Below are positions 636 to 64,000 of a DNA stretch of 64,000 nucleotides, piece after piece. Below the pieces are notes generated by a model that saw only the letters and a program-made list of their open reading frames with translations, did not search any database and was not told where the DNA came from. The position numbers and the translations under genes are program-made. Within the stretch, counting starts at the first letter, position 1; the number at the start of each line of letters is the position of its first letter. The stretch covers positions 1,103-65,102 of IMG/VR virus record IMGVR_UViG_3300044900_000004, one strand, 5' to 3'. This DNA comes from a virus.

Positions 636-2048
636 TTAGGACATGCGATCGATGGTTCGATATTGAATGGCTTCGGCAACATGATGAGTTTGCAGATGTT
701 CATCATTGGAGAGATCAGCAATCGTTCTAGCGACTTTGAGAATGCGATCGCTAGCTCTTACAGACAGCCCTAATCTGCGAATTGCATTTTCGAGTAAACT
801 ACGAGTCGCGTCGTCGAGAATGCACCATTTCCTCAAATGAACGCTTTGCATTTCTGCATTACAGCGCAGTGGCGTATTTTGGAATCGCTGGTAGGCGCAG
901 TTGCGGGCAAGTTGAACGCGCGATCGTACCGTTGTTGAATCTTCCCCACTGGGCTGTTGGGTGATTTCTTCTGGCTTAAGGCGATTGACTCCGACTTGTA
1001 GATCGATTCTGTCCATCAAGGGCCCCGAAAGCTTTGCCCAATATTGCTCTCTGGCTCTCGGCGAACAGGTACAAGGCTGAATCGTGTCTGCATAATAGCC
1101 ACAAGGACAGGGATTGGTGCTGGCAACAAGTGTAAATCGGGCGGGAAATAGAACGGATTGACGAGTGCGAGAAATGGTAACATGACCATCTTCTAAAGGC
1201 TGGCGCAAAAACTCTAGAACGTCTCGCTTAAATTCCGTTAATTCGTCAAGAAATAGAACTCCTCTATGGGCGAGAGAAATTTCGCCAGGGCGCGGGTAAC
1301 TGCCTCCTCCGACGAGAGACGCTCCGGATGCTGAATGGTGAGGACTACGAAATGGGCGGACAGCAACCAGTGCGCCTTTTTCTTTGAGCAGACCTGCGAC
1401 AGAGTGAATTTGCGTGACTTCGAGCGCTTCCTCAAAGGAGAGGGGTGGCAGTATCGCGGGCAGTCGTCGGGCTAGCATGGTTTTTCCACTTCCGGGTGGG
1501 CCGACAAAGACGACGTTATGACCTCCGGCGGCAGCAATTTCTAGAGCGCGACGGGCGTGAGATTGTCCTTTGACATCCCGCAGATCGGGCGCGTCAATCT
1601 GCATCTGTAGCTCTTTTTCGGCATCGATTTGAACGGGGAGATAAGCAGCAGGATTGCCCAAAAACTGACCAATTTCTGATAGATGTTTGAATCCGTAAAC
1701 GTTGAGACCTTTGACGACGGCGGCTTCGCGAACATTATCAGACGGGACGACTAACCCTGAAAATCCAAGCTGTTTGGCGGCAGCAGCGATCGCCAGTACA
1801 CCCGCAACAGGCCTAAGGGAGCCGTCTAACGAAACTTCGCCTAAAAATAGATGAGTTTCTAATAGTTCGGCACTGACTTGCTCAGAGGCGGCCAAAATTC
1901 CAACACTAATCGGTAGATCAAAGCTCGGTCCTTCTTTGCGGAGGTCGGCTGGCGTGAGATTTACGACTATTTTCCGCATCGGGAACAGATAGCCCGCATT
2001 TCTGAGCGCTGTTTTGACTCGTTCTTTTGATTCTTGAACCACAGCATC
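636..2048 (-). pseudogene. comM: ComM/YifB Mg-chelatase-family AAA+ ATPase, 3' part only (5' end separated by prophage)
   Basis: GPPGSGKT, PFRSPHH, LFLDE, CPCG, DRID motifs; homology begins abruptly at DAVVQESKERVK with an in-frame stop a few codons upstream; the usual ~40-aa N-terminus is absent. Confidence 0.9.
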
Positions 2049-5830: not shown

Positions 5831-6766
5831 TTACGCGACAACAGGTAAGTCTTTTACGCCGCGCAGACGAGCCACTGAGCGACCATGCTGCACAGCGATC
5901 GCCGTGTGCCAGTCGATACGGGTTCGCATACAGGGCTTGGTTTCCAGTTCCCCTAAGTCGCGAACACTGATGCCGTAGCCACCTTCGTTATTGCGGAAAT
6001 TCAGACCCTCAACCATGCCATCGTCAAAACTGACCACATAAATTGACGAGTTATTGGTTGTCGAGGCATCTTGAGACGCTTCGTCGAATCCCATAATTTC
6101 CAAATCGTTGTTGTCTTGCCATACAGGGATGATTGGAATTCCCTGGTAAGTCGTGATTCGCTTACCCATGCTTTCTGTGTTGAATTCCACAAAACCGCCA
6201 ACTGCGTTGTTCCGGGATGCTGCACTCATTCGACGCGCAATCGTCTTGTTCACAATGATGTGAGTGGGATTGTCTACTAGGTCGATCAACTCGTCCATCT
6301 TGCTAAGGCTGAGCGCCCCGCCTGCTGCTGCGATGTCGAGAAGCTGAGTCCCGCCAACACGCACCTGCAAACCATCAAAAGCGCGAGGCTCTTTGGATGA
6401 GTCGCCTTTGATGAAGTTACGCGTCCAAGCTAGAGCCTGCGCTTTTAGTTGCTGCTTTTCTTGAGTTTCGCGAACGCTCGGGCCCTGAGTAGCAATCATC
6501 GCCATATCGACATCGAGATCGCGACCGCACATCTTCATAGCCTCGGATTGCGGATTCATGATGCCGATCGACTGATCAAAGCCTTCGTTGTAGCCACGAA
6601 ACCCAACACCTGGGAGTGCGTGCTCTAGGTTGTAGCTGTAGGAATTGCCATCGACATTTTTGAAGCCGATCGCCATTAGAATCTCGGTAGTCGAGGCGTA
6701 TTGCTCGATATAAGCGCGGGTCAGGTCGTCGGCTGATTTGGCCGCTTCAATTAAAGTTAAGCCCAT
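5831..6766 (-). CDS. Major capsid protein
   Basis: 311 aa, MGLTLIEAAK...AFDGLQVR...YQGIPI; follows scaffold-like gene. Confidence 0.85.
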   Translation of the reverse strand: MGLTLIEAAKSADDLTRAYIEQYASTTEILMAIGFKNVDGNSYSYNLEHALPGVGFRGYNEGFDQSIGIMNPQSEAMKMCGRDLDVDMAMIATQGPSVRETQEKQQLKAQALAWTRNFIKGDSSKEPRAFDGLQVRVGGTQLLDIAAAGGALSLSKMDELIDLVDNPTHIIVNKTIARRMSAASRNNAVGGFVEFNTESMGKRITTYQGIPIIPVWQDNNDLEIMGFDEASQDASTTNNSSIYVVSFDDGMVEGLNFRNNEGGYGISVRDLGELETKPCMRTRIDWHTAIAVQHGRSVARLRGVKDLPVVA

Positions 6767-20681: not shown

Positions 20682-21677
20682 ATGGCAACTATTTTCAAAT
20701 ACAACGGTGTTCAATATCTCAGCATCAAAGACGCTTGCCAGCAATTAGGGAAAAATTATGCGGCTGTCCTAAAACGCCTTCAAGCTAACTGGACTGTGGC
20801 ACAAGCGTTTGACGACGAACCTCGCCCACCCCGACACCCCCTCTCACTCAATGGGGTTACTTACAATGGGGTCGGCGAAGCGGTTCGACTCCTAAACGCT
20901 CCTGTGAGTCGCCGCACTGCTATGCGGCGAATGGAAGCAGGAATGACCCTGGAGGAAAGTTTATTCACGCCTCTTACCCTTGCTCACAGCAATGGAGTTG
21001 TTTATTCGATCACCAATCTCGTCAATGGCAAGCAATATATCGGTATAACCACCACGTCACTGGAAGAGCGATGGCAAAGCCATCTAGACACTCCTCTCAA
21101 AAAAAGACACCTGCTCCATCAATCGATCACTGAATTTGGCAAAGAGAACTTCGCGATCGAGGTTCTCGAACGTGCTTCTAGCCTGAAAGAGCTTCGCGTC
21201 AAAGAGCAAGAGTGGATTCAGAAGTTAAACACAAGGCAGCCAAATGGCTACAACATCACCAAAGGCGGTGAAATGGGCGGATCTGCGGGCAAGCCTACTA
21301 TACTCCCTGGAGATCCAACGCTCTACCCAACTGTTCGGGCTGCGGCGAAAGCGTTGGCTCAAAGGGAAGGAATTAATGAAGCTGCTGCCGAGAGGAGAAT
21401 TTATGTAGAGCGAATTGAGGTTAAGAAACCTCATGGAATGTCAAAAAGCAAAATTTATCGGTATTGGGATAATTTGATCAATTCCACAACCAACCCTCGA
21501 TCGAGGGGCTACAACGGTTCTACACTCTGCGATCGCTGGAGGGATTTTAGGAACTTTCATGAGGATATGGGTGAGCAATACCAGGAGGGTATGATCCTTC
21601 GATTAAAGGACTCTACTAAGCCTTACTCTAAAGACAATTGCTCTTGGGTCTGGCGCTACGGAAAGAGCATTGTCTAA
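20682..21677 (+). CDS. GIY-YIG homing endonuclease with degenerate HNH-like C-terminus
   Basis: GVVYSITNLVNGKQYIGIT...RW..H...E..WI...GYN. Confidence 0.8.
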   Translation: MATIFKYNGVQYLSIKDACQQLGKNYAAVLKRLQANWTVAQAFDDEPRPPRHPLSLNGVTYNGVGEAVRLLNAPVSRRTAMRRMEAGMTLEESLFTPLTLAHSNGVVYSITNLVNGKQYIGITTTSLEERWQSHLDTPLKKRHLLHQSITEFGKENFAIEVLERASSLKELRVKEQEWIQKLNTRQPNGYNITKGGEMGGSAGKPTILPGDPTLYPTVRAAAKALAQREGINEAAAERRIYVERIEVKKPHGMSKSKIYRYWDNLINSTTNPRSRGYNGSTLCDRWRDFRNFHEDMGEQYQEGMILRLKDSTKPYSKDNCSWVWRYGKSIV

Positions 21678-42800: not shown

Positions 42801-42931
42801 CTTCGGGTTCGGTTAATTCGTGAGTTGTGGCCCTCTAGCCATACCGAAAAGCCCAGCACGAAGACGCAGGCGGCAACGTTGGCAAAAAAGGCAAGCAGCA
42901 TAAAAGCGAAGGGATTAGGGCAGTTCATCAT
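42797..42931 (-). CDS. 44-aa single-TM protein
   Basis: MMNCPNPFAFMLLAFFANVAACVFVLGFSVWL...; stop overlaps ATG 42800. Confidence 0.4.
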   Translation of the reverse strand: MMNCPNPFAFMLLAFFANVAACVFVLGFSVWLEGHNSRINRTRR

Positions 42932-44342
42932 TTGGTTCTGTGTTCTGAGTTCCTACGAGATCTACATTCTGCTCAATTTCCTCAAGCTTCGTGTCAGCAG
43001 GGAGCCAGCGACGCGCTAAGAGCATTTGTAAGCCAAGAGCCTGGGGAATTTGAACGCCCATTGCATCCAAAATGATTTGGATTTCTTGCGGGGTTGCTGG
43101 GATTTGCAGAATCGATTCGTTTACGTCCAAGCTGCCAGTGGCTGGTTCACGGGTGAACGCTGCCCAGAACCTGAAGATCTGCTGTGAGCAAGATTCTTTG
43201 CGGGTAGCCATACCCTTGAGAGTTGCCTGCGTTTGAGCAGTGTCCAGAACCACCTCGGTTGCCGTTTTCGCTGTCTCGCTGCCAGAGAGAAACGCTAGCG
43301 TCACGCGATCCATCGATCGCTCTAGCTTTTCAATATCTGCCTGCGTCAATGCCATGCCGCTGCCCGAAGGTTCGGCAAAAGAGAAATCGCCTGTTTCTGG
43401 GACATCGACAACCGAATTTGGACCAATCACCAGACGCGGCATGATCGGCGGCTGCCCTGGGACAGTTGGGGCGATCGCTTTTGCACCTTTCCGCACAGGC
43501 ACAGGCATATTGATCTTGTACTGGATTTCGTTGAAGCTCGATCGCTTCTGCAGATGCTCAATGTTCAGCCTCGCTAAATTCATGAATGGCGGCTGACCCT
43601 GGAACAATTTAGATTCTGAAATGCTGTACCAAACGATCGGCACTTCACTCAGGCTCGTCTTCCCCTCATCCACCAGCCGCTTAACGTAGCCCTGCTTCGT
43701 GTGAATCAGTTCGTAAACCTCAAAGGAGCCAGGGCGCAACACGCGATAGAGAGTCTGCTGTTTGGTGCCAAATTCGCCATCGTCAACCTCCTCGATCGTG
43801 CGAATCACCACGCGATTGATAAACTGTTTGCCGCCTCGGTGAGTCGTGCTCCAGTTGAGAATGTCGCGCCGATCGATGAGCACCAAATAGGGCCGTCTTC
43901 CCGATTCGAGTAAGTCCCGATTGGTGAGGATTTCAGGATCTTCAGGTGGATACTCCACCAAAATTCCGCACCCACCGTCACGCATCACCAGCTCATCAGC
44001 TTCGGTGAAGAACGTCACTAGATCATTACCCTGTCCGTCGATGTCTTTTTCAGAAAGTACGATCGACGCTGGGACTTCATCCGTGAGCGTAAACTCACTC
44101 AGCAAACCCGCATGACCTTTGAGCGCAGGGGTGAATCGGTTGTCGAAGTGGGCGCGATCGAGCCTGTTTTTATAAGCTTTTTCTGGCTCTGCCTGCTCTT
44201 TGGGGAGATATTGTTTTTTGCAGTTTTTGAGGTCGTTCCAGACATTCCACACCAAATCAAGTTCATCCTGCACCTCTAGAAGGTTTGGGTGCAGGAAGCT
44301 GGGGAGGGTGTTGTCTGTGGTGGGAATTGCAGCGGTTCTCAT
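42915..44342 (-). CDS. Portal protein (DUF4055-like)
   Basis: 475 aa; YLPKEQAE...YKNRL; LARLNIEH; AKTATE. Confidence 0.85.
   Translation of the reverse strand: MRTAAIPTTDNTLPSFLHPNLLEVQDELDLVWNVWNDLKNCKKQYLPKEQAEPEKAYKNRLDRAHFDNRFTPALKGHAGLLSEFTLTDEVPASIVLSEKDIDGQGNDLVTFFTEADELVMRDGGCGILVEYPPEDPEILTNRDLLESGRRPYLVLIDRRDILNWSTTHRGGKQFINRVVIRTIEEVDDGEFGTKQQTLYRVLRPGSFEVYELIHTKQGYVKRLVDEGKTSLSEVPIVWYSISESKLFQGQPPFMNLARLNIEHLQKRSSFNEIQYKINMPVPVRKGAKAIAPTVPGQPPIMPRLVIGPNSVVDVPETGDFSFAEPSGSGMALTQADIEKLERSMDRVTLAFLSGSETAKTATEVVLDTAQTQATLKGMATRKESCSQQIFRFWAAFTREPATGSLDVNESILQIPATPQEIQIILDAMGVQIPQALGLQMLLARRWLPADTKLEEIEQNVDLVGTQNTEPNDELP
42949..42956 (-). promoter_or_regulatory. GTRGGAAY motif inside the portal 3' end
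   Basis: GTAGGAAC, 17-20 nt before the small membrane-gene cluster. Confidence 0.45.
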
Positions 44343-54299: not shown

Positions 54300-54794
54300 A
54301 TGTCGAAATACATCATCCCAGGGCTGCGGCTCCAACACATTCTGATTCTTGGCACCTGCGCTTATTTAATGCAAGCGATCGCCACCGCAGACGGAGCGTT
54401 CAGGCTCAATCACTCTTTAGCAGTGCAGGTAAAAGAACGGGGATGGGCAGGCGCAATGCAGTCTCTGGGATGGATGGACAAATCGGCAGACGCGATCGAC
54501 CGATGGAGCATTAAACAATTCGGCAAAGACCCCTGGCAGGCTCAAGGTGAGTTTCTCGCTCGGCAGGTTGGGGATTGTGTCACCACTCCCAGCTATGGCA
54601 AGGGCTACCTCAGCAAAGCCCAAATCAGCGTGTATCACCGCGCTCTCAAAAAAGACTTAAAAGTACTCGGATCGCCCCTCTGCAAGACCGTTTCAGGCAA
54701 TTTACGTTACCTGACAGACGAACCCCAAACGCTCTTTGAGGTCGATTCGACCAACCCTAAAAATTATGGTGCAGTCACGCAGCCCGACAATTGA
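54300..54794 (+). CDS. Membrane/secreted hypothetical protein
   Basis: N-terminal hydrophobic segment. Confidence 0.55.
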   Translation: MSKYIIPGLRLQHILILGTCAYLMQAIATADGAFRLNHSLAVQVKERGWAGAMQSLGWMDKSADAIDRWSIKQFGKDPWQAQGEFLARQVGDCVTTPSYGKGYLSKAQISVYHRALKKDLKVLGSPLCKTVSGNLRYLTDEPQTLFEVDSTNPKNYGAVTQPDN

Positions 54795-56313
54795 TAATGT
54801 TATCTCGCTCGCTAAATTCCTTAATAAATCAGCAACCCCAGACCGCTCCTCTGCGCTCAAAGATGCCAAACTGCGCCTAGAAACCGCCCAAAAGAATGCC
54901 CGAACTGCGAGAGACCCAAACCGCGCTAATGACCTCGCTGAAAGCGCCAAAGACTCTCTAGATATCGCAGAAGAGAAGCGGATTAAAGCGGTCAGCACCT
55001 ACAACCTGGTTGCTGACAAACTCAATCAAATCAAGGCGGCGCAGAAGACCCCAGACGAGTTGCAGCTTCTGGCTGACTCGGTTGAAACTGCCAAAGATCG
55101 GCTCGATCGGGCATCTCGCAAAGTTGACAAGCTGCAAGAAGCTGTCAATCTAGGGTCAGCAAAACTGCGTCAAGCGAGGCAATTAGAGAAATCTGAGACG
55201 GAACTTGAATCTCTCGAATCGTTGCTGAATGTCGATCGAGAGAAACTCAGTCGCGCATCTATTCAGTTTCGCGCTAGACAGGATGAGTTTAAGCAGGCAG
55301 AGCAGGCACTTTCTCAAGCCAGAAAGCTCACCAAAACGCCCGAAGAACTCAAACTTCTAGAAGACCGACTCAATGAGGCTCAAGGGCAAGTAGACCGAGC
55401 AACCAAAAAGGTCGCCGATGCCCAGCAAAATTATCAGCAGGCTCTAACCACTGCTCAAACCACCACAGCCGAAGCTCAGAAATTGGAAGCAGAGTTGGCG
55501 ATTGCCCTTGCTGATTACGAAAAAATTACTGAGGCAACCGAAGCTGAGGAACGATTTGCAGCGATCGAGGCGCACCTTCAGACCTTTGAGAAGGGGCTGC
55601 AAACGACCAGAGAAGTGACTGACGTAGTTGACCCGTTTCTCAATGCTGAATTTTGGTGGAATTCTGCCTGCCTGGGAGCGACGGCGCTAGTTGCTGTGAT
55701 GTACTTCACTCCCTTGGGGGCAGTGCTACAAAACACAGTTAAGGCAGTGAAATGGACGGCTGGTGCAGTTGGCAACGCTAAACAGTATGTGGATTCAACG
55801 TTTGCTCCAAATCTCAAGGACGTGCCAAAAGAGGGAGAAACGATCGCGGGTTGGGTTGTCACTTCTGGGTTTGGGCCGCGCACTTCTCCCACCGCAGGCG
55901 CATCCAAAGATCACGGCGGCATCGACCTTGCTGACCCACGCGGACCTAAATTTACAACAGGACGCGAACTCTACGGCATCGGCACTCCTGGAACCAAATT
56001 GCAGTTGACCTGCTGGCAAGATACAGGCGGCGGCGGGTTGGTCGCAACCTTAAAGCCTGAAAGCCTGCCCTACACGATCGAGTATCTCCACTTATCAAAA
56101 TGCCAGCTCAAAAATGGCGAAACCAAAACGGTTAGCGCAGGCAAGGTGATCGCTTTGGTGGGCCGCTCCGGAGTAGGTACGGCGGCCCACCTGCATCTAC
56201 AGGTCAAAGATGCCAACGGCAAAAAGATTCCGCCACCCCGGTCGATCGCTTGGTGGGCACTTACCGGAGAAATGCCCCAACCCGTAATTGCTCAGAAGAG
56301 GATAACCAAATGA
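54766..56313 (+). CDS. Coiled-coil + TM + M23 metallopeptidase
   Basis: VTSGFGPR...HGGID...YLHL...GRSG.GT..HLH. Confidence 0.85.
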   Translation: MVQSRSPTIDNVISLAKFLNKSATPDRSSALKDAKLRLETAQKNARTARDPNRANDLAESAKDSLDIAEEKRIKAVSTYNLVADKLNQIKAAQKTPDELQLLADSVETAKDRLDRASRKVDKLQEAVNLGSAKLRQARQLEKSETELESLESLLNVDREKLSRASIQFRARQDEFKQAEQALSQARKLTKTPEELKLLEDRLNEAQGQVDRATKKVADAQQNYQQALTTAQTTTAEAQKLEAELAIALADYEKITEATEAEERFAAIEAHLQTFEKGLQTTREVTDVVDPFLNAEFWWNSACLGATALVAVMYFTPLGAVLQNTVKAVKWTAGAVGNAKQYVDSTFAPNLKDVPKEGETIAGWVVTSGFGPRTSPTAGASKDHGGIDLADPRGPKFTTGRELYGIGTPGTKLQLTCWQDTGGGGLVATLKPESLPYTIEYLHLSKCQLKNGETKTVSAGKVIALVGRSGVGTAAHLHLQVKDANGKKIPPPRSIAWWALTGEMPQPVIAQKRITK

Positions 56314-56477
56314 CGCTCAACCCCTTTTATTGGTGGCTTCAGGCAGTGGCGATCGAGTTACGTCATTTCGGCGAAGTCTTAACTACCGCCGACTTGATGT
56401 CTGCTGAGTTTTACTTCTACCAGTCATACACGCCAAATCAGTATGCAAACGCGCTACTTAACTGGAGACGATACTGA
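56310..56477 (+). CDS. Hypothetical protein
   Basis: Coupled 55-aa ORF MTLNPFYWW... Confidence 0.45.
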   Translation: MTLNPFYWWLQAVAIELRHFGEVLTTADLMSAEFYFYQSYTPNQYANALLNWRRY

Positions 56478-56992
56478 TGACTCAATCAGACCCACGTCGC
56501 CACAAACAGAAGTGGAAGCGCACTGCCAAGCTCACCCGATCGCTGACTCGAGATCGCTGTTGCAACTGTGGAGCCGCCGCCAAAGAAGTGCATCACAGTT
56601 ACTACGGCATTCGAGTTTTGTTTCTCACCTTGCCTTTGTCCGGCTTTGAGATTCCCGGCTGGCAAATCTTTCCGTTGTGCGACAAGTGCCATTCCAACTC
56701 TAAGCACTGCGCTCACCACATCAGCAATTATCAAGCTTCAAAGCTCTCAGACTGGTTCAACTGCAACACCTCCAGCTACTTGTGGGGACTGCGGTTTAAG
56801 TTTCTGCTGACTGTTGCGATCGTGCATCCACTCACCACCTTATTGATTTTGATTGGCTTATGGCTATCCGTTCCGACTATCTTTGCTGGTTCATCCTGGG
56901 GGCGATTTTTGTCACCAGCCTCCCCTCGATCGCCCAAAGCACCAAATCTACCAGCCAGACTGCTGCATCGCCTGACACCGCCAAACTTGTAG
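56477..56992 (+). CDS. HNH-like nuclease with C-terminal TM segment
   Basis: CCNCG...EVHH...PLCDKCH. Confidence 0.6.
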   Translation: MTQSDPRRHKQKWKRTAKLTRSLTRDRCCNCGAAAKEVHHSYYGIRVLFLTLPLSGFEIPGWQIFPLCDKCHSNSKHCAHHISNYQASKLSDWFNCNTSSYLWGLRFKFLLTVAIVHPLTTLLILIGLWLSVPTIFAGSSWGRFLSPASPRSPKAPNLPARLLHRLTPPNL

Positions 56993-57405
56993 GCGAAATG
57001 GAAGGCTTCCGATCCTGCCCTTATAAAGACCCTGTGGGAGTGGCGACGATCGGATACGGCAACACCTACTACCAGGATGGGCGCAAGGTAACACTGAACG
57101 ATGCTTGTTTAGACAAAGACAAAGCAAAGCAGTTGATGCAAGCCACGCTAGACAAAACAGCGAGAGAAGTAGAGGCGATGGTGAACGTACCGCTAACCGC
57201 TAATCAAAAAACGGCTCTCACCAGTTTTGCCTTCAACATAGGAACAGGGGCGCTGAGAGACTCTGACTTGCTAGCAAAACTCAACGCTGGAGATAAAGAA
57301 GGCGCGGCACAAGAGTTTGATCGCTGGGTGCATGGCGAGAACAAGCAAGTGCTGCCGGGGTTGGTCGATCGCCGCGCCAAAGAGAAAGACCTCTTCAAAA
57401 AATAA
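56860..57405 (+). CDS. GH24 phage lysozyme with N-terminal signal-like segment
   Basis: EMEGFR..PYKDPVGVATIGYG...FAFNIG...FDRW...LPGLVDRRAKE. Confidence 0.9.
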   Translation: MAIRSDYLCWFILGAIFVTSLPSIAQSTKSTSQTAASPDTAKLVGEMEGFRSCPYKDPVGVATIGYGNTYYQDGRKVTLNDACLDKDKAKQLMQATLDKTAREVEAMVNVPLTANQKTALTSFAFNIGTGALRDSDLLAKLNAGDKEGAAQEFDRWVHGENKQVLPGLVDRRAKEKDLFKK

Positions 57406-57645: not shown

Positions 57646-57953
57646 GCAAGGCCTTCCTTGGTGAGAGCTAAGGATTCCTTTTTGGCTAATATCTATCCGT
57701 AAATAGCCAGAACTGCTTTAACGATCGACCACGGACTGATCGTGATCTTGCTTCGCTTTGTATAGCGCGACTAAAAACAAGAATCGCATAGCATTTTAAG
57801 CAATTCCCCTAAAAAACGCGATCGCGTCGCGATCGCGTTTCAAAAAGGTATGTTAGTCTTGCATTAGGTGAAAAAGAATTAGCAAAGCAAAAGAGCCAGT
57901 CTCCTGGAAAAGATTACAGCCCTTTTGCCGCTCTACTCGTTTTTGCTAGAAAT

Positions 57954-58022
57954 GGGGCGGGCAGGTTTGCCTCTTTGGGACTTCGCACTCCGGGGAGAGG
58001 AATTCAAGTTTCCGCCGCTCCA
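57954..58022 (+). tRNA. Degenerate tRNA-Arg(UCG)-like element
   Basis: Acceptor GGGGCGG/CCGCTCC, anticodon loop CTTCGCA, T-loop TTCAAGT; short D-arm and stem mismatches. Confidence 0.4.
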
Positions 58023-58047
58023 CAACCCCCTACTTTTAGGAGGTTAG

Positions 58048-58983
58048 TTGACCATGACTAACAATCACACTTTCATTTTAAACGGACATGCCTCAACAGC
58101 GCAACAACTTCTTATTACTCCCACCACCAAAGTGATAGAACCTCATAGCAGCGATAATACCTCTACAAGTCCGCATTCACTTCGCCCTGTCGATTGGACA
58201 GTTTTGCGAGCGATTGGCATTGGTGGTGAGGTGAAAAGATTAGAAATCCAAAAAGAAACAGGCTTACCCACCTCTATCGTCTCGAAGTCCACGCGTGTAT
58301 TGTACGAGCAGACCAGGATATGCAGAAGGATAGCTCCTGGGACTGAAAACCAATCGAAGCCTACTCTCCTCTTTTCACTTTCTCCAGGGTTAACACTGGA
58401 ATCCATTGAGGCTGAAATGAAAGATTTAAATGTATCTATTTCGGCTCCCACTCTAAAAGACATTCCTGAAGAACAAAAACGTTCTGCAAAACCAAAACCG
58501 ATGAGTTCTCAAATCAGTGAAATTATTAAAGAAAGAGGAGGCACAGTTAGCGAAATTGTTGAAAAAACTGGGCTAGCGGTAGGAATAGTTCAAGGGTACT
58601 TGGGTAGAGCTTACCGAAAAGGAGATGTTACTCGTGTACGCAATCCAGACAAATCAACTTTGGAGTACATCTATTCGCTCGCCACAAATGCAGGTGATTC
58701 TGGACAGAGCAAGGGTAGATCGGATGCTGTGAGTCATTCTGCTTCTGAAACCAATGAACCATTAGAGCAACCCAGTATGAATCATCATATGGACACGGAA
58801 TCGCCACAAAAGGCATCTGACTCTACATCCAACGCTGAGGCAACAATTTGGGAAGTAGTACAAGCTATGGCTGAAAGAATCGTTGACCTTGAAGGTCGTT
58901 TTGAACAGCTTGAGACAGCTTTAAAGGGAAATAGCAATCTTAAGGCTGACCAGATCTTATCTTTACTTCGCAAAAAGACTTAG
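58048..58983 (+). CDS. Protein with two winged-HTH-like domains and C-terminal coiled coil
   Basis: EIQKETGLPTSIVSKST and EIVEKTGLAVGIVQGYL repeats. Confidence 0.6.
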   Translation: MTMTNNHTFILNGHASTAQQLLITPTTKVIEPHSSDNTSTSPHSLRPVDWTVLRAIGIGGEVKRLEIQKETGLPTSIVSKSTRVLYEQTRICRRIAPGTENQSKPTLLFSLSPGLTLESIEAEMKDLNVSISAPTLKDIPEEQKRSAKPKPMSSQISEIIKERGGTVSEIVEKTGLAVGIVQGYLGRAYRKGDVTRVRNPDKSTLEYIYSLATNAGDSGQSKGRSDAVSHSASETNEPLEQPSMNHHMDTESPQKASDSTSNAEATIWEVVQAMAERIVDLEGRFEQLETALKGNSNLKADQILSLLRKKT

Positions 58984-58989
58984 AAAAAA

Positions 58990-59087
58990 TGGCGGCACTG
59001 GTGCCTATGTTCTGTCCAAAGAAGCGTCGCTGGTGCTAGTTGTGCTTCCTAAGCTCAGTGCTGGGGGTTCAATTCCCCTGCCGTTCA
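58990..59087 (+). tRNA. tRNA-Arg(CCU)-like element with enlarged D-region
   Basis: Anticodon loop TTCCTAA, T-arm GGGGG-TTCAATT-CCCCT, acceptor TGGCGGC/GCCGTTC; ~24 extra nt in the D-loop. Confidence 0.45.
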
Positions 59088-59104
59088 TAATCCTATCTAA
59101 GCCC

Positions 59105-59776
59105 ATGGAAGCAGTAGAAATGATGAATCGCTCTAGTTACTTGAATTGTAATAATTGGGACTACTCTGACCACCCTAAGCGTCATAGTGCCCTTTCAGAA
59201 AGATGCTTCGAGGTTTACAAGGAAATAGAAGAAAATAGGCTAGGTATTTTAGATCTTTTAGCAGATTCGCGCCCTACTCATAAGCATCTTTTTGAATTTG
59301 CCGCCCCTTCTGATTGCGAATATATGGCTGGGCATTACCGTGGTGAAGATTTTCCTTGTTTAGCTAATTGCTGGGTTGGAATTGAATCGGATTCGAGTGT
59401 TGGATACGCGCCATCAATTGTTCTAGAAACTATGAAAGTATTTGGTGATATTTCGACTAATTCAATTCATGCCTTAGACCCAATTATTCAAGATTCTAAC
59501 TTTTCAATAGAACGCAAGATTATTAGAGCAGTTACTTCAGCCTGTGACATTTTTGAGTATTTTCTCCGAATACATCCTTACGCCAACGGGAATGGGCATC
59601 TTAGCAGGATGCTGCTTTGGGCGACTCTTAAGCGCTATAACTTTGAGCCTAGAGGTTTGACAATAGATACTAGACCAATATCTCCGTATGCAACCCTTAT
59701 CAAGTCATACAGAGAAGATGACAAAAAGCCTTTAATAGCTAAGATTTTGAATTTTATTAATGCGAACGGTACATGA
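59105..59776 (+). CDS. Fic-domain protein
   Basis: HPYANGNGHLSR (cf. HPFxDGNGRxxR); AGHYR. Confidence 0.85.
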   Translation: MEAVEMMNRSSYLNCNNWDYSDHPKRHSALSERCFEVYKEIEENRLGILDLLADSRPTHKHLFEFAAPSDCEYMAGHYRGEDFPCLANCWVGIESDSSVGYAPSIVLETMKVFGDISTNSIHALDPIIQDSNFSIERKIIRAVTSACDIFEYFLRIHPYANGNGHLSRMLLWATLKRYNFEPRGLTIDTRPISPYATLIKSYREDDKKPLIAKILNFINANGT

Positions 59777-59782
59777 ATAAAC

Positions 59783-60403
59783 TTAATCGTTGAAGCTAGA
59801 TATTTCGCTTGAAAAATTGCGGAGCCATTGCTCTGAACCAGAAACATCTTGTTTCCTTTTACTTATTGCAAAACTGGCTTGACGTGCCAATTCTAATAGT
59901 TCCTCATCAGCTTCGATAGAAGAAGTTTCATCATCTATGCTTGCTTCTCTTGCGCTCCAACCAAACCCAAACTCATTGAGACGACTGGAAAAATATTGTT
60001 TTATTGATTGCTGAGGAATTGATTGGCTTAACTTATTATAATTCTCAATCCAAGGAGACTCAAGATGGGTCATATTTCTCAAGCTCATAGCAGAATATTT
60101 ACCAAACATCTCTAAAATTCTATTCAAGAAAGCACTAATGTTTTGGTCCCAAGTTTGATAGTTAGAATGTGCTTGAAAATTGACTGGATTGGCACCAAAA
60201 AGCTTGAGTTCATGGTACACAGAAGGAACAACAGGTCCATGATCCCAAGCTTCAAGTTCTTCTAAAAATAAAGGGGACTCATACAAAGCCAAATGAAACC
60301 CTTGCGCGTAATAGAGCAGTTTTTGAATTTTTAAGTTGCTTAAATCTGTATAGCTTTGACCATTTTCTACAAAGTATCGAGCAATTTCTAAAGCATTTTT
60401 CAT
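59783..60403 (-). CDS. SocA/Panacea (DUF4065) antitoxin-like protein
   Basis: LSNLKIQKLLYYAQG...AWDHGPVV...LRNMTH.E.PW. Confidence 0.88.
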   Translation of the reverse strand: MKNALEIARYFVENGQSYTDLSNLKIQKLLYYAQGFHLALYESPLFLEELEAWDHGPVVPSVYHELKLFGANPVNFQAHSNYQTWDQNISAFLNRILEMFGKYSAMSLRNMTHLESPWIENYNKLSQSIPQQSIKQYFSSRLNEFGFGWSAREASIDDETSSIEADEELLELARQASFAISKRKQDVSGSEQWLRNFSSEISSFND

Positions 60404-60865
60404 TGGATTGCTCCTATTGCAGCTTGGTACAAGAGTACGTTAGTCGCGTGCCCTATTATAGCTTGCCTTCCAACTGTTTTTAATAAATCTATAGACTTGA
60501 AGTGGCGCTATATGTAGGATGCTTGAATTTAGTTGAACTACTTATAGCGTTTGCTTCTGGATTTGCTTCTAGAAAGTAATAAGCCGCATCAATAGTGTTT
60601 GCCACAAATTCCTCCAGTTGAGCCAAGAACCGAATGCAATCACCTAGTAGTCAACTACTACCACTCTAGTTTACCTAATTGTAAAATGTACGGACGACTT
60701 TAAAACTTTATATCATACTCTGCATTGCTCAAAAAGCATACACACCTTTTTTGATTTAAACATGCGGATATCCGAACCTTTAATTTCGCTGCCACTATTT
60801 AACCAGAAGGTTAGGAAAGAGAGCCGATCCTAATCGGCTGAACACGTTCAAGAACGTTCAAGAAC

Positions 60866-61405
60866 ATGATCCACCGTCACTACGTGTCCGATTTGTTTGG
60901 GGAGTCTGGAGAGTATCGAACCAGTCAGGGAGAGACGATCGGGAAGACGACTTTCTACACCCAATACCTGAAAGCGCTGTCTATCTCTCCTCTTAAAGAT
61001 GAGAATCACCGCGCTTACGTCACTCACGACCAGAAGCAACTACTCGATGAGTATCACCGCCGCCGATGTGAGGGTAAAACCTCTCTGAACGAATTCCTTG
61101 CCGAACTTGGCTCAACTCAGCTACAGTCTACGATCGAGCCTGTTCAGAACACTCCCGAACTCGTTCAATCTCCCCTGTGGCTTGCTTTTCTCGAAGCTCT
61201 AACCCCTCGCCTCGCACCTCCCACTGATCCGCTCTCTCCTCAAAAGCAATTGCAGGAGATTAGCGATCGGGCCTGGCAAGTTTCAAGCTCCCAACTCAAA
61301 GCCATCCTAAACACAAGCTCTGTCCCCCCGAACCGATACGGGTTCAACTTTACAAAAGTAGGTAAATCAGGTCGCGAATTATCGTGGGTGGTACAAAAAA
61401 TCTAG
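60866..61405 (+). CDS. Hypothetical protein, possible N-terminal HTH
   Basis: IGKTTFYTQYLKALSI; conserved-looking C-terminus. Confidence 0.55.
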   Translation: MIHRHYVSDLFGESGEYRTSQGETIGKTTFYTQYLKALSISPLKDENHRAYVTHDQKQLLDEYHRRRCEGKTSLNEFLAELGSTQLQSTIEPVQNTPELVQSPLWLAFLEALTPRLAPPTDPLSPQKQLQEISDRAWQVSSSQLKAILNTSSVPPNRYGFNFTKVGKSGRELSWVVQKI

Positions 61406-61432
61406 AATGTTGTGGAAGTTTAAAAATCTGCT

Positions 61433-61663
61433 GTGTTCAACCTGCTTTCAGCCGATGAACGGATTGTTGCTTCTGTCAAGCTTGAGGTTGCCAATCCTCC
61501 ACTGATTATTGTTTGGGGCGATCGGGGATTCCTGCGATACAAGGATTTCTCTTATCGAGAGATTGCAATTTATGTATGCGATGCAGAGACCCAAATCTTG
61601 ACCGCAGAGCAGATGCTACCGATTCGCCCCCCGCGCCGATCAAGCGCTAAAAATGGTCGGTAG
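61433..61663 (+). CDS. Hypothetical protein
   Basis: 76-aa ORF converging on EAL gene. Confidence 0.4.
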   Translation: MFNLLSADERIVASVKLEVANPPLIIVWGDRGFLRYKDFSYREIAIYVCDAETQILTAEQMLPIRPPRRSSAKNGR

Positions 61664-62326
61664 ACCTGCGGCCCAGCCTTGAACATATAAATCAAGTCCT
61701 GGGGCATAGCGATCGTGGATGCCAGATAAAATCTCCCACAGCTCAGTTGTCTCCACATATTCACAAACGCAGCAAAGCCCCAACCCTTCAGCCATTGTCA
61801 TCAAGGTGCCTACGATCGCTCTTGCCTTCATGTTTTCAGCGATTTGCAAAATTAGATGGCCGTCGATCTTGATGCCATCAAACTTAAAATTGCACAGTCG
61901 ATTTAGCCCAGAGTAGGCAGAGCCAATATCATCCAACATGGTTGGAAAGTGTTGGCAGATTTCATTTAGCAGATCAGTTTGAGTAATTTCAAAGGCGTGA
62001 TGCTCCGTCACCTCGATCACGAGTTCTTGAGCAGTGCCAAGCAGGAACTCAAAAAGCTCAGGACTGCTCAGACTGTCACTCGATAAGTTGATTGCATATT
62101 TTCCAAAAGGGAGCCTACGGATCTGGCTTGCCACCCAAAAATCGAGAATTCTTGACTCTTGAGGATTGAGCGAATTGAGGAAAGCGATCGGGCTGCCTCC
62201 TTGAACTCTGAGCAGCACCTCAAAGTAATCAGACTCTCTCGCCTTTGGACGAATCGAGCGAATCGGCTGGCAAGCGATCGATAGATGTTCCTGTCTGAGA
62301 GCGGCTTCCAAAATTGACACGGGCAA
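61640..62326 (-). CDS. Stand-alone EAL-domain cyclic dinucleotide phosphodiesterase
   Basis: CQP, EVLLR, INLS, IEVTE, LDDIGSAYS, IKID, CEYVE, QGW. Confidence 0.9.
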   Translation of the reverse strand: MPVSILEAALRQEHLSIACQPIRSIRPKARESDYFEVLLRVQGGSPIAFLNSLNPQESRILDFWVASQIRRLPFGKYAINLSSDSLSSPELFEFLLGTAQELVIEVTEHHAFEITQTDLLNEICQHFPTMLDDIGSAYSGLNRLCNFKFDGIKIDGHLILQIAENMKARAIVGTLMTMAEGLGLCCVCEYVETTELWEILSGIHDRYAPGLDLYVQGWAAGLPTIFSA

Positions 62327-62451
62327 TAATCTGAATGAAGTTTATTCGACTTTCGCGACCGATTTAACCATTCTCTGTACTTGCTCAAAGCAACCGGAGT
62401 AAGGCTACAGGTTGTTTTAAAACTTGTTCTACAGGCTAAATTCTTCACCAA

Positions 62452-62985
62452 TTACTCATATTCTTTTCGAGCGGCCCTGAACTTTGCTTCGATCGCTTGA
62501 GTCCAAAAAGCTTCTCGAAACGGATTGAACTCCTCTTCTCTCCGCTTGTCTGGGATGCGCCTGAGTAGCCTGGGGTCTCTGATGTTGAGCACGATGTCTG
62601 GGCAAATTCTCTCGGCTAAAAATTTGCCTATATCAGCAGCAACGCGATCGGGGGCTTGCCAGAGTTCTAGCGTAGACCCGTTATCCGCTGGAATCTGAAT
62701 TGATGTTTGAATCGAAACCACGATCGAGATAGTGTCTTTCTCGATCGGACGAGCCAAAATCCACAAATGATGAGTCTTGGTCGGGTCCAACTGATAAGGG
62801 AGATACTTCTCTCCTCGTATAGGTCTGAGATGCTCGATACGGAGGGTATGCAGATATCCCTGCAAGAGACATCCGCGATAGGCAACGACCGCTCGACCGG
62901 ACGGGAGGAGTCGCTCCATTCTGGGAAGAAAGATTGAGGATACTGGCTTATCACGCCGCTTCCTCCAGTTTGAGAAAAATTCCAC
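62452..62985 (-). CDS. Hypothetical protein
   Basis: 177-aa ORF in the EAL operon. Confidence 0.6.
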   Translation of the reverse strand: MEFFSNWRKRRDKPVSSIFLPRMERLLPSGRAVVAYRGCLLQGYLHTLRIEHLRPIRGEKYLPYQLDPTKTHHLWILARPIEKDTISIVVSIQTSIQIPADNGSTLELWQAPDRVAADIGKFLAERICPDIVLNIRDPRLLRRIPDKRREEEFNPFREAFWTQAIEAKFRAARKEYE

Positions 62986-62998
62986 GTTGCATGGTCAC

Positions 62999-63292
62999 TT
63001 ATTTTACGAGGATTTTTGAATAGGCGTTGAGTCGATCGGTGGGTGCCATTCTCAGGACTGCCGAACCAGCGGCCATCGCCCCAAACCAGCCGATCGCTTC
63101 TTGCCAGGTGAAATTCTCGGCAATCGATCGCTTAGACGCAGGAACTGCCAGCAGCGCTAGCAACGCCAGATGCATCGTGAATTCGATCGGGTCGAGCGTC
63201 AGCCCAAACAAGCGAATGCCACTGGGTTTAGCACGGTTTACACAGTCGATCGGGCAGCTCAAAAGTTCGGTCGGGATTTCTGACTGAGACAT
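62999..63292 (-). CDS. Small 2-TM membrane protein
   Basis: Two hydrophobic helices. Confidence 0.6.
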   Translation of the reverse strand: MSQSEIPTELLSCPIDCVNRAKPSGIRLFGLTLDPIEFTMHLALLALLAVPASKRSIAENFTWQEAIGWFGAMAAGSAVLRMAPTDRLNAYSKILVK

Positions 63293-63321
63293 GGAATAAA
63301 CCGAAACGCTTCACTTTATTG

Positions 63322-63329
63322 ATTCCCAC
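63322..63329 (-). promoter_or_regulatory. GTRGGAAY motif
   Basis: GTGGGAAT, 29 nt before ATG 63292. Confidence 0.6.
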
Positions 63330-63558
63330 GCTCAATTAAGCAAGGTTGCAGCAAATGCCATAAAAACCTACCTCAGAGATTGATGCTGCCCAGTAATTCT
63401 TTTCCGCCCAAAGCATCAGGATGCGATCGTAGTCCTCGCTCTGACAAATATCATCTGAGCTTCCGCCGCCATAGTGGTAGTAGAGCGAATATCTAGCAAT
63501 CATTTGAGGAGTGAGGAGTGAGGTGTGAGGGGATATCTAATCGCTCATACCCCCCGAA

Positions 63559-64000
63559 CTAAGAAGCAATTTGAATCAAAATTTGCTGAATTTTAGCTTT
63601 CAGCGCAGCATTGTCAATTTGCAGATCAAAAGCGATTTCCTTCCTGGACCGCTTTTGATAATAAAGAGCCTCGATTAAAGAGCGATCGCTTGCCTCTAGC
63701 GCAGATAAGTTCTTTCGCAGCTTAGACCAGGCGCGTTCTAGTTGACTGTGATCACCTGGCTCTGGCCCCTCAATGCTGAATTCTTGCGATCGCACTAGTG
63801 GAGAAGTTCTTGCACGTCCGTGACTAAAGCTTTTAGTCGTTGGAAGCTGAGACTCGTATTCATCGCGACCAGTCAAATCACGATCGAGTTGATCAAAGCT
63901 GATTGGAGTTTGGTGAGCGATCGCTGCCCTCACCTCTCGAATTCGCTCTAGCTTTATCCCAGACTGATCGGCTAATTCCTGCTCGGTTGGCAATCTCCCT
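63559..64000 (-). CDS. Sigma-70-family (group 3, FliA/SigF-like) factor, C-terminal part
   Basis: PTEQELADQSGIKLERIREV...ISFDQ (region 3); ALEASDRSLIEALYYQKRSRKEIAFDLQI (region 4). Confidence 0.8.
   Translation of the reverse strand, partial: GRLPTEQELADQSGIKLERIREVRAAIAHQTPISFDQLDRDLTGRDEYESQLPTTKSFSHGRARTSPLVRSQEFSIEGPEPGDHSQLERAWSKLRKNLSALEASDRSLIEALYYQKRSRKEIAFDLQIDNAALKAKIQQILIQIAS

Follow-up and report, generated by a model that had tools for sequence, protein, structure and literature searches.

The solved EAL proteins that come closest to the gene described here, BlrP1, RbdA and DosP, are chromosomal host genes in which the EAL domain is accompanied by BLUF, PAS, GGDEF or haem domains. 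One-domain EALs are represented by the NCBIfam model NF008617, which we take to be the PdeH/YhjH model, and by the Vibrio cholerae protein 6IFQ, both of which belong to host regulons. Small stand-alone proteins of the same fold also include the anti-FlhDC proteins STM1697 and YdiV, which have lost their catalytic residues and act by protein binding. On the viral side, virus-borne genes of cyclic di-GMP (c-di-GMP) metabolism have been annotated in viromes (PMC11295528) and PMC8085984 describes a phage peptide that inhibits a diguanylate cyclase, while our literature search found no characterised phage-encoded EAL. Here we describe a stand-alone EAL-domain gene, predicted to encode a c-di-GMP phosphodiesterase, in a cyanobacterial prophage. 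The DNA analysed (the window, 64,000 nucleotides [nt]) comprises bases 1103-65102 of a single 73,694-bp virus record, IMGVR_UViG_3300044900_000004, and coordinates are those of the window unless the whole contig is named.

The EAL gene lies at 61640..62326 on the minus strand and was assigned from Pfam, AlphaFold2 (AF2), Foldseek and alignment results. Read from a TTG start it encodes 228 amino acids (aa), and the gene-caller form, from a GTG two codons on, encodes 226. The Pfam EAL model PF00563 matches the 228-aa protein with an E value of 1.4e-27 (97 bits against a cut-off of 31.3, profile positions 4-223 of 236) without any second Pfam domain, and the frame is closed just 5' of the TTG start, so that a sensor or GGDEF domain could not be accommodated. 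The catalytic, metal-binding and substrate-binding residues of the family are E36 and R40 (FEVLLR), N80 (AINLS), E105 and E108 (IEVTE), D132 and D133 (LDDIG), K153 and D155 (GIKID), E189 and E192 (CEYVE) and Q216 (VQGW), with all of these motifs falling on their BlrP1 and DosP equivalents in the profile alignment. Both a complete canonical residue set and a stand-alone architecture lacking sensor and GGDEF domains had been claimed in an earlier note on this DNA, and both claims hold. In an alignment of 19 homologues, Q20, E36, R40, N80, E105, E108, D132, D133, K153, D155, E189 and E192 are invariant, and Q216 is kept in every full-length homologue. The mean column identity of that alignment is just 61%, yet every catalytic position is invariant, which is the signature of selection on catalysis. 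Loop 6 (DDIGSAYSGL) is near that of BlrP1 (DDFGAGYSGL). Judged by its sequence, the protein is a member of the EAL superfamily that falls outside all named NCBIfam EAL equivalogs, none of which it matches above cut-off (the best being RimA with 48.7 bits against 430 and NF008617 with 33.4 against 190). We consider it very probable that the protein is an EAL c-di-GMP phosphodiesterase and that it is carried by a phage.

Structure prediction agrees with this assignment. The AF2 model, computed on the homologue alignment, reaches a predicted local distance difference test score (pLDDT) of 89.7 and a predicted template modelling score (pTM) of 0.85, and all top 50 Foldseek matches in the PDB are EAL domains (E values down to 1e-17, query-normalised template modelling scores [TMq] up to 0.86). 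The best of these are the PA0861/RbdA EAL domains (TMq 0.85-0.86, 27% identity), with the best fold matches as a group being active EAL domains at TMq 0.82-0.86, and the predicted fold is the TIM-like (beta/alpha) barrel of the family. Modelled as two copies, the protein scores 0.47, whereas the highest of three controls scores 0.17; that mark is reached by 20 of 30 solved pairs and by 1 of 23 solved single chains. The homodimer runs share at least 95% of their contacts, the partner pLDDT is at least 83, and the modelled interface is formed by residues 134-182, which comprise loop 6 and the next helices, as in solved EAL dimers. The EAL protein may therefore be a homodimer that pairs through loop 6 and the helices following it, with the caveat that the pass may come from likeness to those solved structures.

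Searching 5.8 billion clustered proteins, we recovered 19 close homologues (201-257 aa, 52-62% identity), all of them stand-alone. With HMMER, 25,877 EAL proteins were found among 1.84 billion representatives at E values of 0.001 or below, four of them at 1e-30 or below, and 11 of the top twelve are short (227-311 aa). In a maximum-likelihood tree, the 19 core proteins cluster with 11 short EALs that are more distant, giving one group of 30 (Shimodaira-Hasegawa-like approximate likelihood ratio test [SH-aLRT] 91), apart from nine multi-domain EALs, a biased sample taken from top hits, and from the six GGDEF-EALs of a Phormidesmis metagenome-assembled genome (MAG; support 100). This tree, together with a large gap in profile scores, argues against recent capture from the host's own EAL genes. 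Every context of an EAL homologue that could be read is phage-like (loci are numbered L001 onwards). The homologue stands beside a convergent neighbor on a 57,477-bp contig, read as circular from its name suffix _c (L001); just after tail-fiber genes in the Phormidesmis MAG (L003/L006); on a contig with an integrase (L004); with a terminase, an integrase and a sigma factor (L005); on an IMG/VR contig that holds the sole IMG/VR relative found (L011); with Gp80/Mom genes (L016/L017); with a portal and ParAB (L018); and with a terminase-like gene (L032). Density of the HIP1 octamer (highly iterated palindrome 1) in the nine EAL loci checked for it is 0.36-1.9 per kb, and since all nine are HIP1-rich, the clade looks confined to phages of cyanobacteria. 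The short EALs thus look, from their sequences, like a cyanophage-specific clade of minimal EALs.

Isolated phages offered no comparable case, as a tblastn search of an isolate-phage collection gave 31 records, none covering 80% of the EAL protein, many of which are bacterial contigs filed as phage or short fecal fragments. One record, "Cyanobacteria phage AS-1 contig_14" (L028, DQ115821, 1.67 kb), was considered as a precedent and set aside, since its GGDEF-EAL fragment is very rich in GC, resembles neither cyanophage nor Synechococcus DNA and is probably a contaminant. Neighbors of the EAL gene change from locus to locus, which is the pattern of an independent accessory gene in a plastic region. 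In five related loci, the EAL gene has a TnpB (IS605-family OrfB) gene or a remnant of one at a distance of up to about 2 kb (L001 9633-10073, L005 7770-9137, L011 12257-13759, L015 5314-6582 and L016 4213-5478), once together with a Y1 transposase. These could mark an insertion hotspot or be a hint of movement of the EAL gene between phages.

The surrounding DNA belongs to a prophage that spans 70 kb or more and interrupts the comM gene of a Phormidesmis-like filamentous cyanobacterium. At the left, a comM/Mg-chelatase-like gene (636-2042, minus strand; 86% identity to the comM of the Phormidesmis MAG) is cut at its 5' end, with the first ~38 codons gone; comM homology ends at ~2048, which is the left prophage border, and the contig beyond comM shows DNA-level synteny with the Phormidesmis chromosome. 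No trace of the missing 5' piece was found anywhere in the contig, so the insertion reaches at least the contig's right end, a span of ~70 kb. No integrase was found in the contig, and its right part shares no direct repeat of at least 13 bp (attL/attR) with the comM junction; together with the absent comM piece, this places the right prophage border beyond the record. To the left of the EAL gene lie a GP7-type capsid gene (5831-6766), a DUF4055 portal (42915-44342) and an M23 peptidase with a GH24 lysozyme (54736-57405), and to the right of its run lie a SigF-like sigma factor, a GIY-YIG endonuclease and the terminase large subunit; the prophage also contains a giant open reading frame (ORF) of 3060 aa. 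The EAL gene is therefore between essential phage genes and internal to the prophage. The earlier note had called the gene prophage-encoded; with structural and lysis genes on one side, sigma factor and terminase on the other, and a left end at which truncated comM gives way to host DNA, this is right. Exact copies of the 179-aa neighbor described below and of a 177-aa protein fragment are also recorded from a 2.2-Mb contig, which fits an integrated prophage. The HIP1 octamer GCGATCGC occurs in 53 copies against 1.8 expected, and the longest stretch of the contig without HIP1 (5.85 kb) is 57829-63682.

With respect to expression, the EAL gene is the third gene of a minus-strand run that extends from 63329 to 61640 and consists of a short motif, a 97-aa gene, a 177-aa gene and the EAL gene, an order that the earlier note had given correctly. 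The motif, GTGGGAAT (GTRGGAAY), occurs 18 times in the window (spanning 6876-63329) against 5.0 +/- 2.2 expected, with 14 of the 18 copies on the minus strand. The copy heading the run (63322..63329, minus strand) stands 29 nt before the ATG of the 97-aa gene at 63292. When the whole contig is considered, an ATG follows at a distance of 28-30 nt in 9 of 15 minus-strand copies, including those of the giant ORF and the portal-to-tail operons, and there are also copies ahead of the capsid gene (by 26 nt) and the portal gene. One of the nine stands 30 nt before an internal ATG of a 243-aa ORF upstream of the terminase large-subunit gene (contig 68758-68765); this ORF is the probable small subunit, and the position of the motif suggests that the real gene is shorter than the ORF. 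What the earlier note had called a late-type motif is thus non-random and precedes structural and packaging operons too. It resembles, as a sequence, the extended -10 "J-Box" (GGGaAtacT) of SigJ, a cyanobacterial group-3 sigma factor, which SigF may read as well (PMC6495340). It is reasonable to suppose that the phage SigF-like sigma factor drives the motif operons, the EAL run among them, and late expression of the run would follow from the motif. Being SigF-like, the phage sigma factor might also read host pilus or motility promoters.

In Synechocystis and Thermosynechococcus, high c-di-GMP promotes aggregation and matrix production and suppresses pilus motility. The related Phormidesmis genome has 12 GGDEF and 6 EAL matches, and a host of this kind would have a c-di-GMP network to perturb. 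We propose that the EAL gene is an accessory gene of a temperate tailed phage of a Phormidesmis-like filamentous cyanobacterium; that the SigF-like sigma factor of the phage switches on the motif operons for packaging, head and tail; and that the run of membrane protein, 177-aa protein and EAL would be transcribed along with them. The EAL dimer would then hydrolyse c-di-GMP to pGpG and collapse the host pool, and the lower level would loosen mat and matrix and favor motility, so that virions or infected filaments could spread. We put the probability of this explanation, an active minimal EAL that lowers host c-di-GMP under phage control, at roughly 55%. For its more specific part, a role in matrix loosening and dispersal under phage-controlled expression with the proposed timing, we see the chances as evenly balanced. 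The suggestion of the earlier note that the phage may rewire host lifestyle is the most plausible reading of the gene. A novel reading, less radical than a role in counter-defense, is that SigF-like sigma factor and EAL would jointly impose on the host a hormogonium-like, pilus-on state of dispersal with low c-di-GMP.

Among the neighboring genes, the first of the run (62999..63292, minus strand) encodes a 97-aa small membrane protein, recognised by hydropathy and without a family match. The earlier note had given it two transmembrane segments; residues 36-52 are clearly hydrophobic and bear out the first, while residues 66-83 are weakly so and leave the second doubtful. After a gap of 13 nt follows the 177-aa gene (62452..62985, minus strand), which has no Pfam, PHROG, NCBIfam or PADLOC match and for which an Atlas search gave no lead. 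Its protein has six homologues; one stands upstream of the EAL homologue in L004 (68% identity), the sole locus in which this gene accompanies an EAL homologue, and one occurs without an EAL in L014. A 55-aa ORF between the sigma gene and the motif (63336..63503, minus strand) is known from the ORF list only and is uncertain as a gene. Beyond it is the SigF-like group-3 sigma gene (Pfam Sigma70_r2 and r3), of which the window holds the 3' part (63559..64000, minus strand) and which in full encodes 275 aa (contig 64661-65488), extending past the window end. Its best NCBIfam model is cyanobacterial SigF, NF005644, with 191 bits and thus under the cut-off of 261, and no relative of it was found in IMG/VR. 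Homologues of this sigma factor are neighbors of the EAL gene in L005 and, in L014, of the 177-aa homologue. A fixed SigF-EAL cassette for the whole clade was considered and rejected, with the sigma gene adjacent in only 2 of 13 loci (this prophage and L005).

On the other side, a 179-aa gene (60866..61405, plus strand) of no known family is convergent with the EAL gene and recurs near EAL homologues, in five loci. A protein 80% identical to it is found directly after the EAL gene in L001/L002, and L011, L003 and L005 have weaker homologues in an equivalent convergent place, with the convergent proteins of 179-191 aa lying at L001 10113-10667, L011 11682-12257 and L005 6814-7389. Its AF2 model has two domains (pLDDT 75) and matches no PDB fold at an E value of 0.001; the best weak likeness, confined to the N-terminal part, is to winged-helix proteins of the MerR/GlnR type (probability 0.3-0.6). 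An Atlas search returned weak cyanobacterial hypothetical clusters only. On the strength of the model, the 179-aa protein may be a phage regulator.

Adjoining the EAL region is a low-GC island (58048-60403; GC content 0.36-0.43 against 0.49) that carries genes for a MarR-like 311-aa protein, a Fic-like protein with weak Pfam and PADLOC SoFic/PDC-S04 matches, and a convergent SocA/Panacea-domain protein. The Fic-like and SocA/Panacea genes look like a toxin-antitoxin-like or defense-like cargo pair. To the right of the window, at contig 69053-70832 (L013 7054-8833), an AAA_21 ATPase and a DUF4276 protein match the PADLOC candidate HEC-01; a TnpB gene comes next and then a Schlafen/AlbA_2 protein, making this a possible defense cargo between terminase and prophage end. 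Two GIY-YIG endonuclease genes, likely homing endonucleases, occur at 20682-21677 and at contig 65822-66835. The second stands between sigma factor and terminase, where the related phages L005 and L014 have an integrase.

Several observations weigh against the reading that an active EAL lowers host c-di-GMP under phage control. On the side of activity, DFG(T/A)GYSS is the conserved loop 6 motif of class 1 active EALs, and the prophage sequence DIGSAYSG makes 5 strict matches to it, differing at 3 of 8 positions, while being very close to DFGAGYSG of BlrP1, and the homologues vary at two positions; moreover, the EAL-profile score is 91-97 bits, against 241-271 bits for host-type EALs of a related cyanobacterium. 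On the side of expression, a 125-nt gap parts the EAL gene from the 177-aa gene, and EAL neighbors differ between phages, which fits an independent accessory gene better than membership of a fixed late operon. In nine other loci, no copy of the motif precedes the EAL homologue, indicating that late control is not conserved across the EAL family. A sigma-70-type promoter-like site (TTGACA, 16 nt, TAAAAT; 11 of 12 consensus positions; 63590..63617, minus strand), a pattern match from a consensus scan, also sits in the 3' end of the sigma gene and is directed at the EAL run, which makes expression in the lysogen equally possible. Were the EAL made in the lysogen from such a host-type promoter, it would act as a moron, that is, by lysogenic conversion, keeping c-di-GMP low and thereby altering exopolysaccharide or pilus display, with reduced adsorption of other phages (superinfection exclusion) or a more motile, dispersive lysogen as the outcome. 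The near-consensus site would serve this reading, although a scan at the threshold used is expected to give 2.7 such sites and gave one. Location also fits: the EAL lies in a variable accessory region beside the low-GC island with its Fic-like and SocA/Panacea genes, EAL loci are often near TnpB, and in L001 and L003 the homologue takes the classic moron position at the end of the tail-fiber block. There are precedents for a c-di-GMP-dependent receptor in phage N4, which according to PMC8669472 depends on a c-di-GMP-dependent glycan and to which overexpressed phosphodiesterases give resistance (work cited in PMC8085984). Nevertheless, the GC content of the EAL gene (0.477) is no different from that of the phage (0.492), and a J-box-like motif stands directly ahead of the run. 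We place lysogenic conversion second among the explanations, as possible but rather unlikely.

The other two alternatives concern what the protein does with its ligand. The earlier note had raised depletion of a defense signal, i.e., that the EAL breaks down the c-di-GMP, or other cyclic dinucleotide, which a cGAS/DncV-like nucleotidyltransferase (CD-NTase) produces, so that a STING-type or other effector of the cyclic oligonucleotide-based antiphage signaling system (CBASS) is not activated and infection is not aborted. The chemistry fits 3'3'-c-di-GMP, late or middle co-expression would fit as well, the stand-alone V. cholerae EAL 6IFQ is titled a "versatile" cyclic dinucleotide phosphodiesterase, and the niche appears open, with no phage enzyme against c-di-GMP-based immunity found in our literature search. 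Beyond the chemistry, however, nothing speaks for an anti-defense role, and the suggestion of the earlier note found no support. PADLOC, which consists of defense models and is weak evidence here, has no match for the EAL, 177-aa, 97-aa or 179-aa proteins, and no SMODS/CD-NTase match was found in the one related Phormidesmis genome searched; a STING search of the Phormidesmis MAG was also negative and is uninformative, as its control matched no genome. An immune signal would, in addition, need insulation from a large housekeeping network with 12 GGDEF proteins, and the distribution of the family follows cyanobacterial phages, to which it is confined, and not CBASS. We regard such a role as quite unlikely for this gene, and just as unlikely the wider proposal that the clade is a phage counter-measure to c-di-GMP-signaling immunity, be it STING-type CBASS or an unknown cyanobacterial abortive system. 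Improbable to a similar degree is a sensor or trigger, in which the EAL would bind c-di-GMP and control, by its occupancy, the sigma factor or the 179-aa putative DNA-binding protein, tying a lysis-lysogeny or late switch to the surface or planktonic state of the host. In this prophage and in L005 the EAL adjoins the sigma gene, a convergent neighbor of the 179-aa type recurs, the lysogeny frequency of vibriophage VP882 changes with c-di-GMP level (PMC11315295), a precedent for such a link, and trigger phosphodiesterases are an established class (Hengge 2016, cited in PMC8085984). Trigger and EAL-like regulators, however, usually come with extra domains or lost residues, whereas here the catalytic set is strictly conserved, which argues for an enzyme over a sensor, and adjacency to the sigma gene is limited to 2 of 13 loci.

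If the phage does lower host c-di-GMP through an active EAL, the consequences could be felt beyond the infected cell. C-di-GMP governs the sessile-motile choice in mat-forming cyanobacteria, and a phage-borne enzyme that degrades it can override this choice, with consequences for mat cohesion, for the spread of filaments or virions and for susceptibility to other phages. The family is soluble, of ~230 aa, well modelled and easily assayed, and from its conserved residues activity is expected. It would thus be convenient as a minimal tool with which to lower cyanobacterial c-di-GMP, and it offers a test case for the manipulation of host behavior by temperate cyanophages. The enzyme class itself is textbook, which makes the finding useful rather than surprising; should the counter-defense reading turn out to be true, this would be the first phage enzyme known to erase a c-di-GMP immune messenger.

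Compared with known systems, the prophage EAL is nearest in fold and active site to BlrP1 (3GFX), RbdA/PA0861 (8PPS, 5XGB) and DosP (4HU3), which have the same fold (TMq 0.73-0.86), are its best PDB profile matches (E values of 1e-20 to 3e-16) and share its catalytic and metal residues; its loop 6 is BlrP1-like. Identity to these proteins is 27-28%. In its plan it is instead closest to the PdeH/YhjH-type EALs of NF008617 and to V. cholerae 6IFQ, with one domain of ~230-255 aa and an intact active site, although it scores 33 bits against the cut-off of 190 for the former and matches the latter at an E value of 2e-13 with 23% identity. A degenerate EAL-like regulator of the YdiV/STM1697 type was rejected as a model, as the prophage protein keeps all catalytic residues. 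With Acb1, a phage nuclease that counters CBASS by cleaving cyclic nucleotide messengers (Hobbs et al. 2022, cited in PMC12072042), the likeness is functional only, since that enzyme belongs to an unrelated family and has a defense signal as its target. Set beside the multi-domain chromosomal enzymes BlrP1, RbdA and DosP, the prophage gene encodes a bare EAL domain, some 15-20 residues shorter than theirs.

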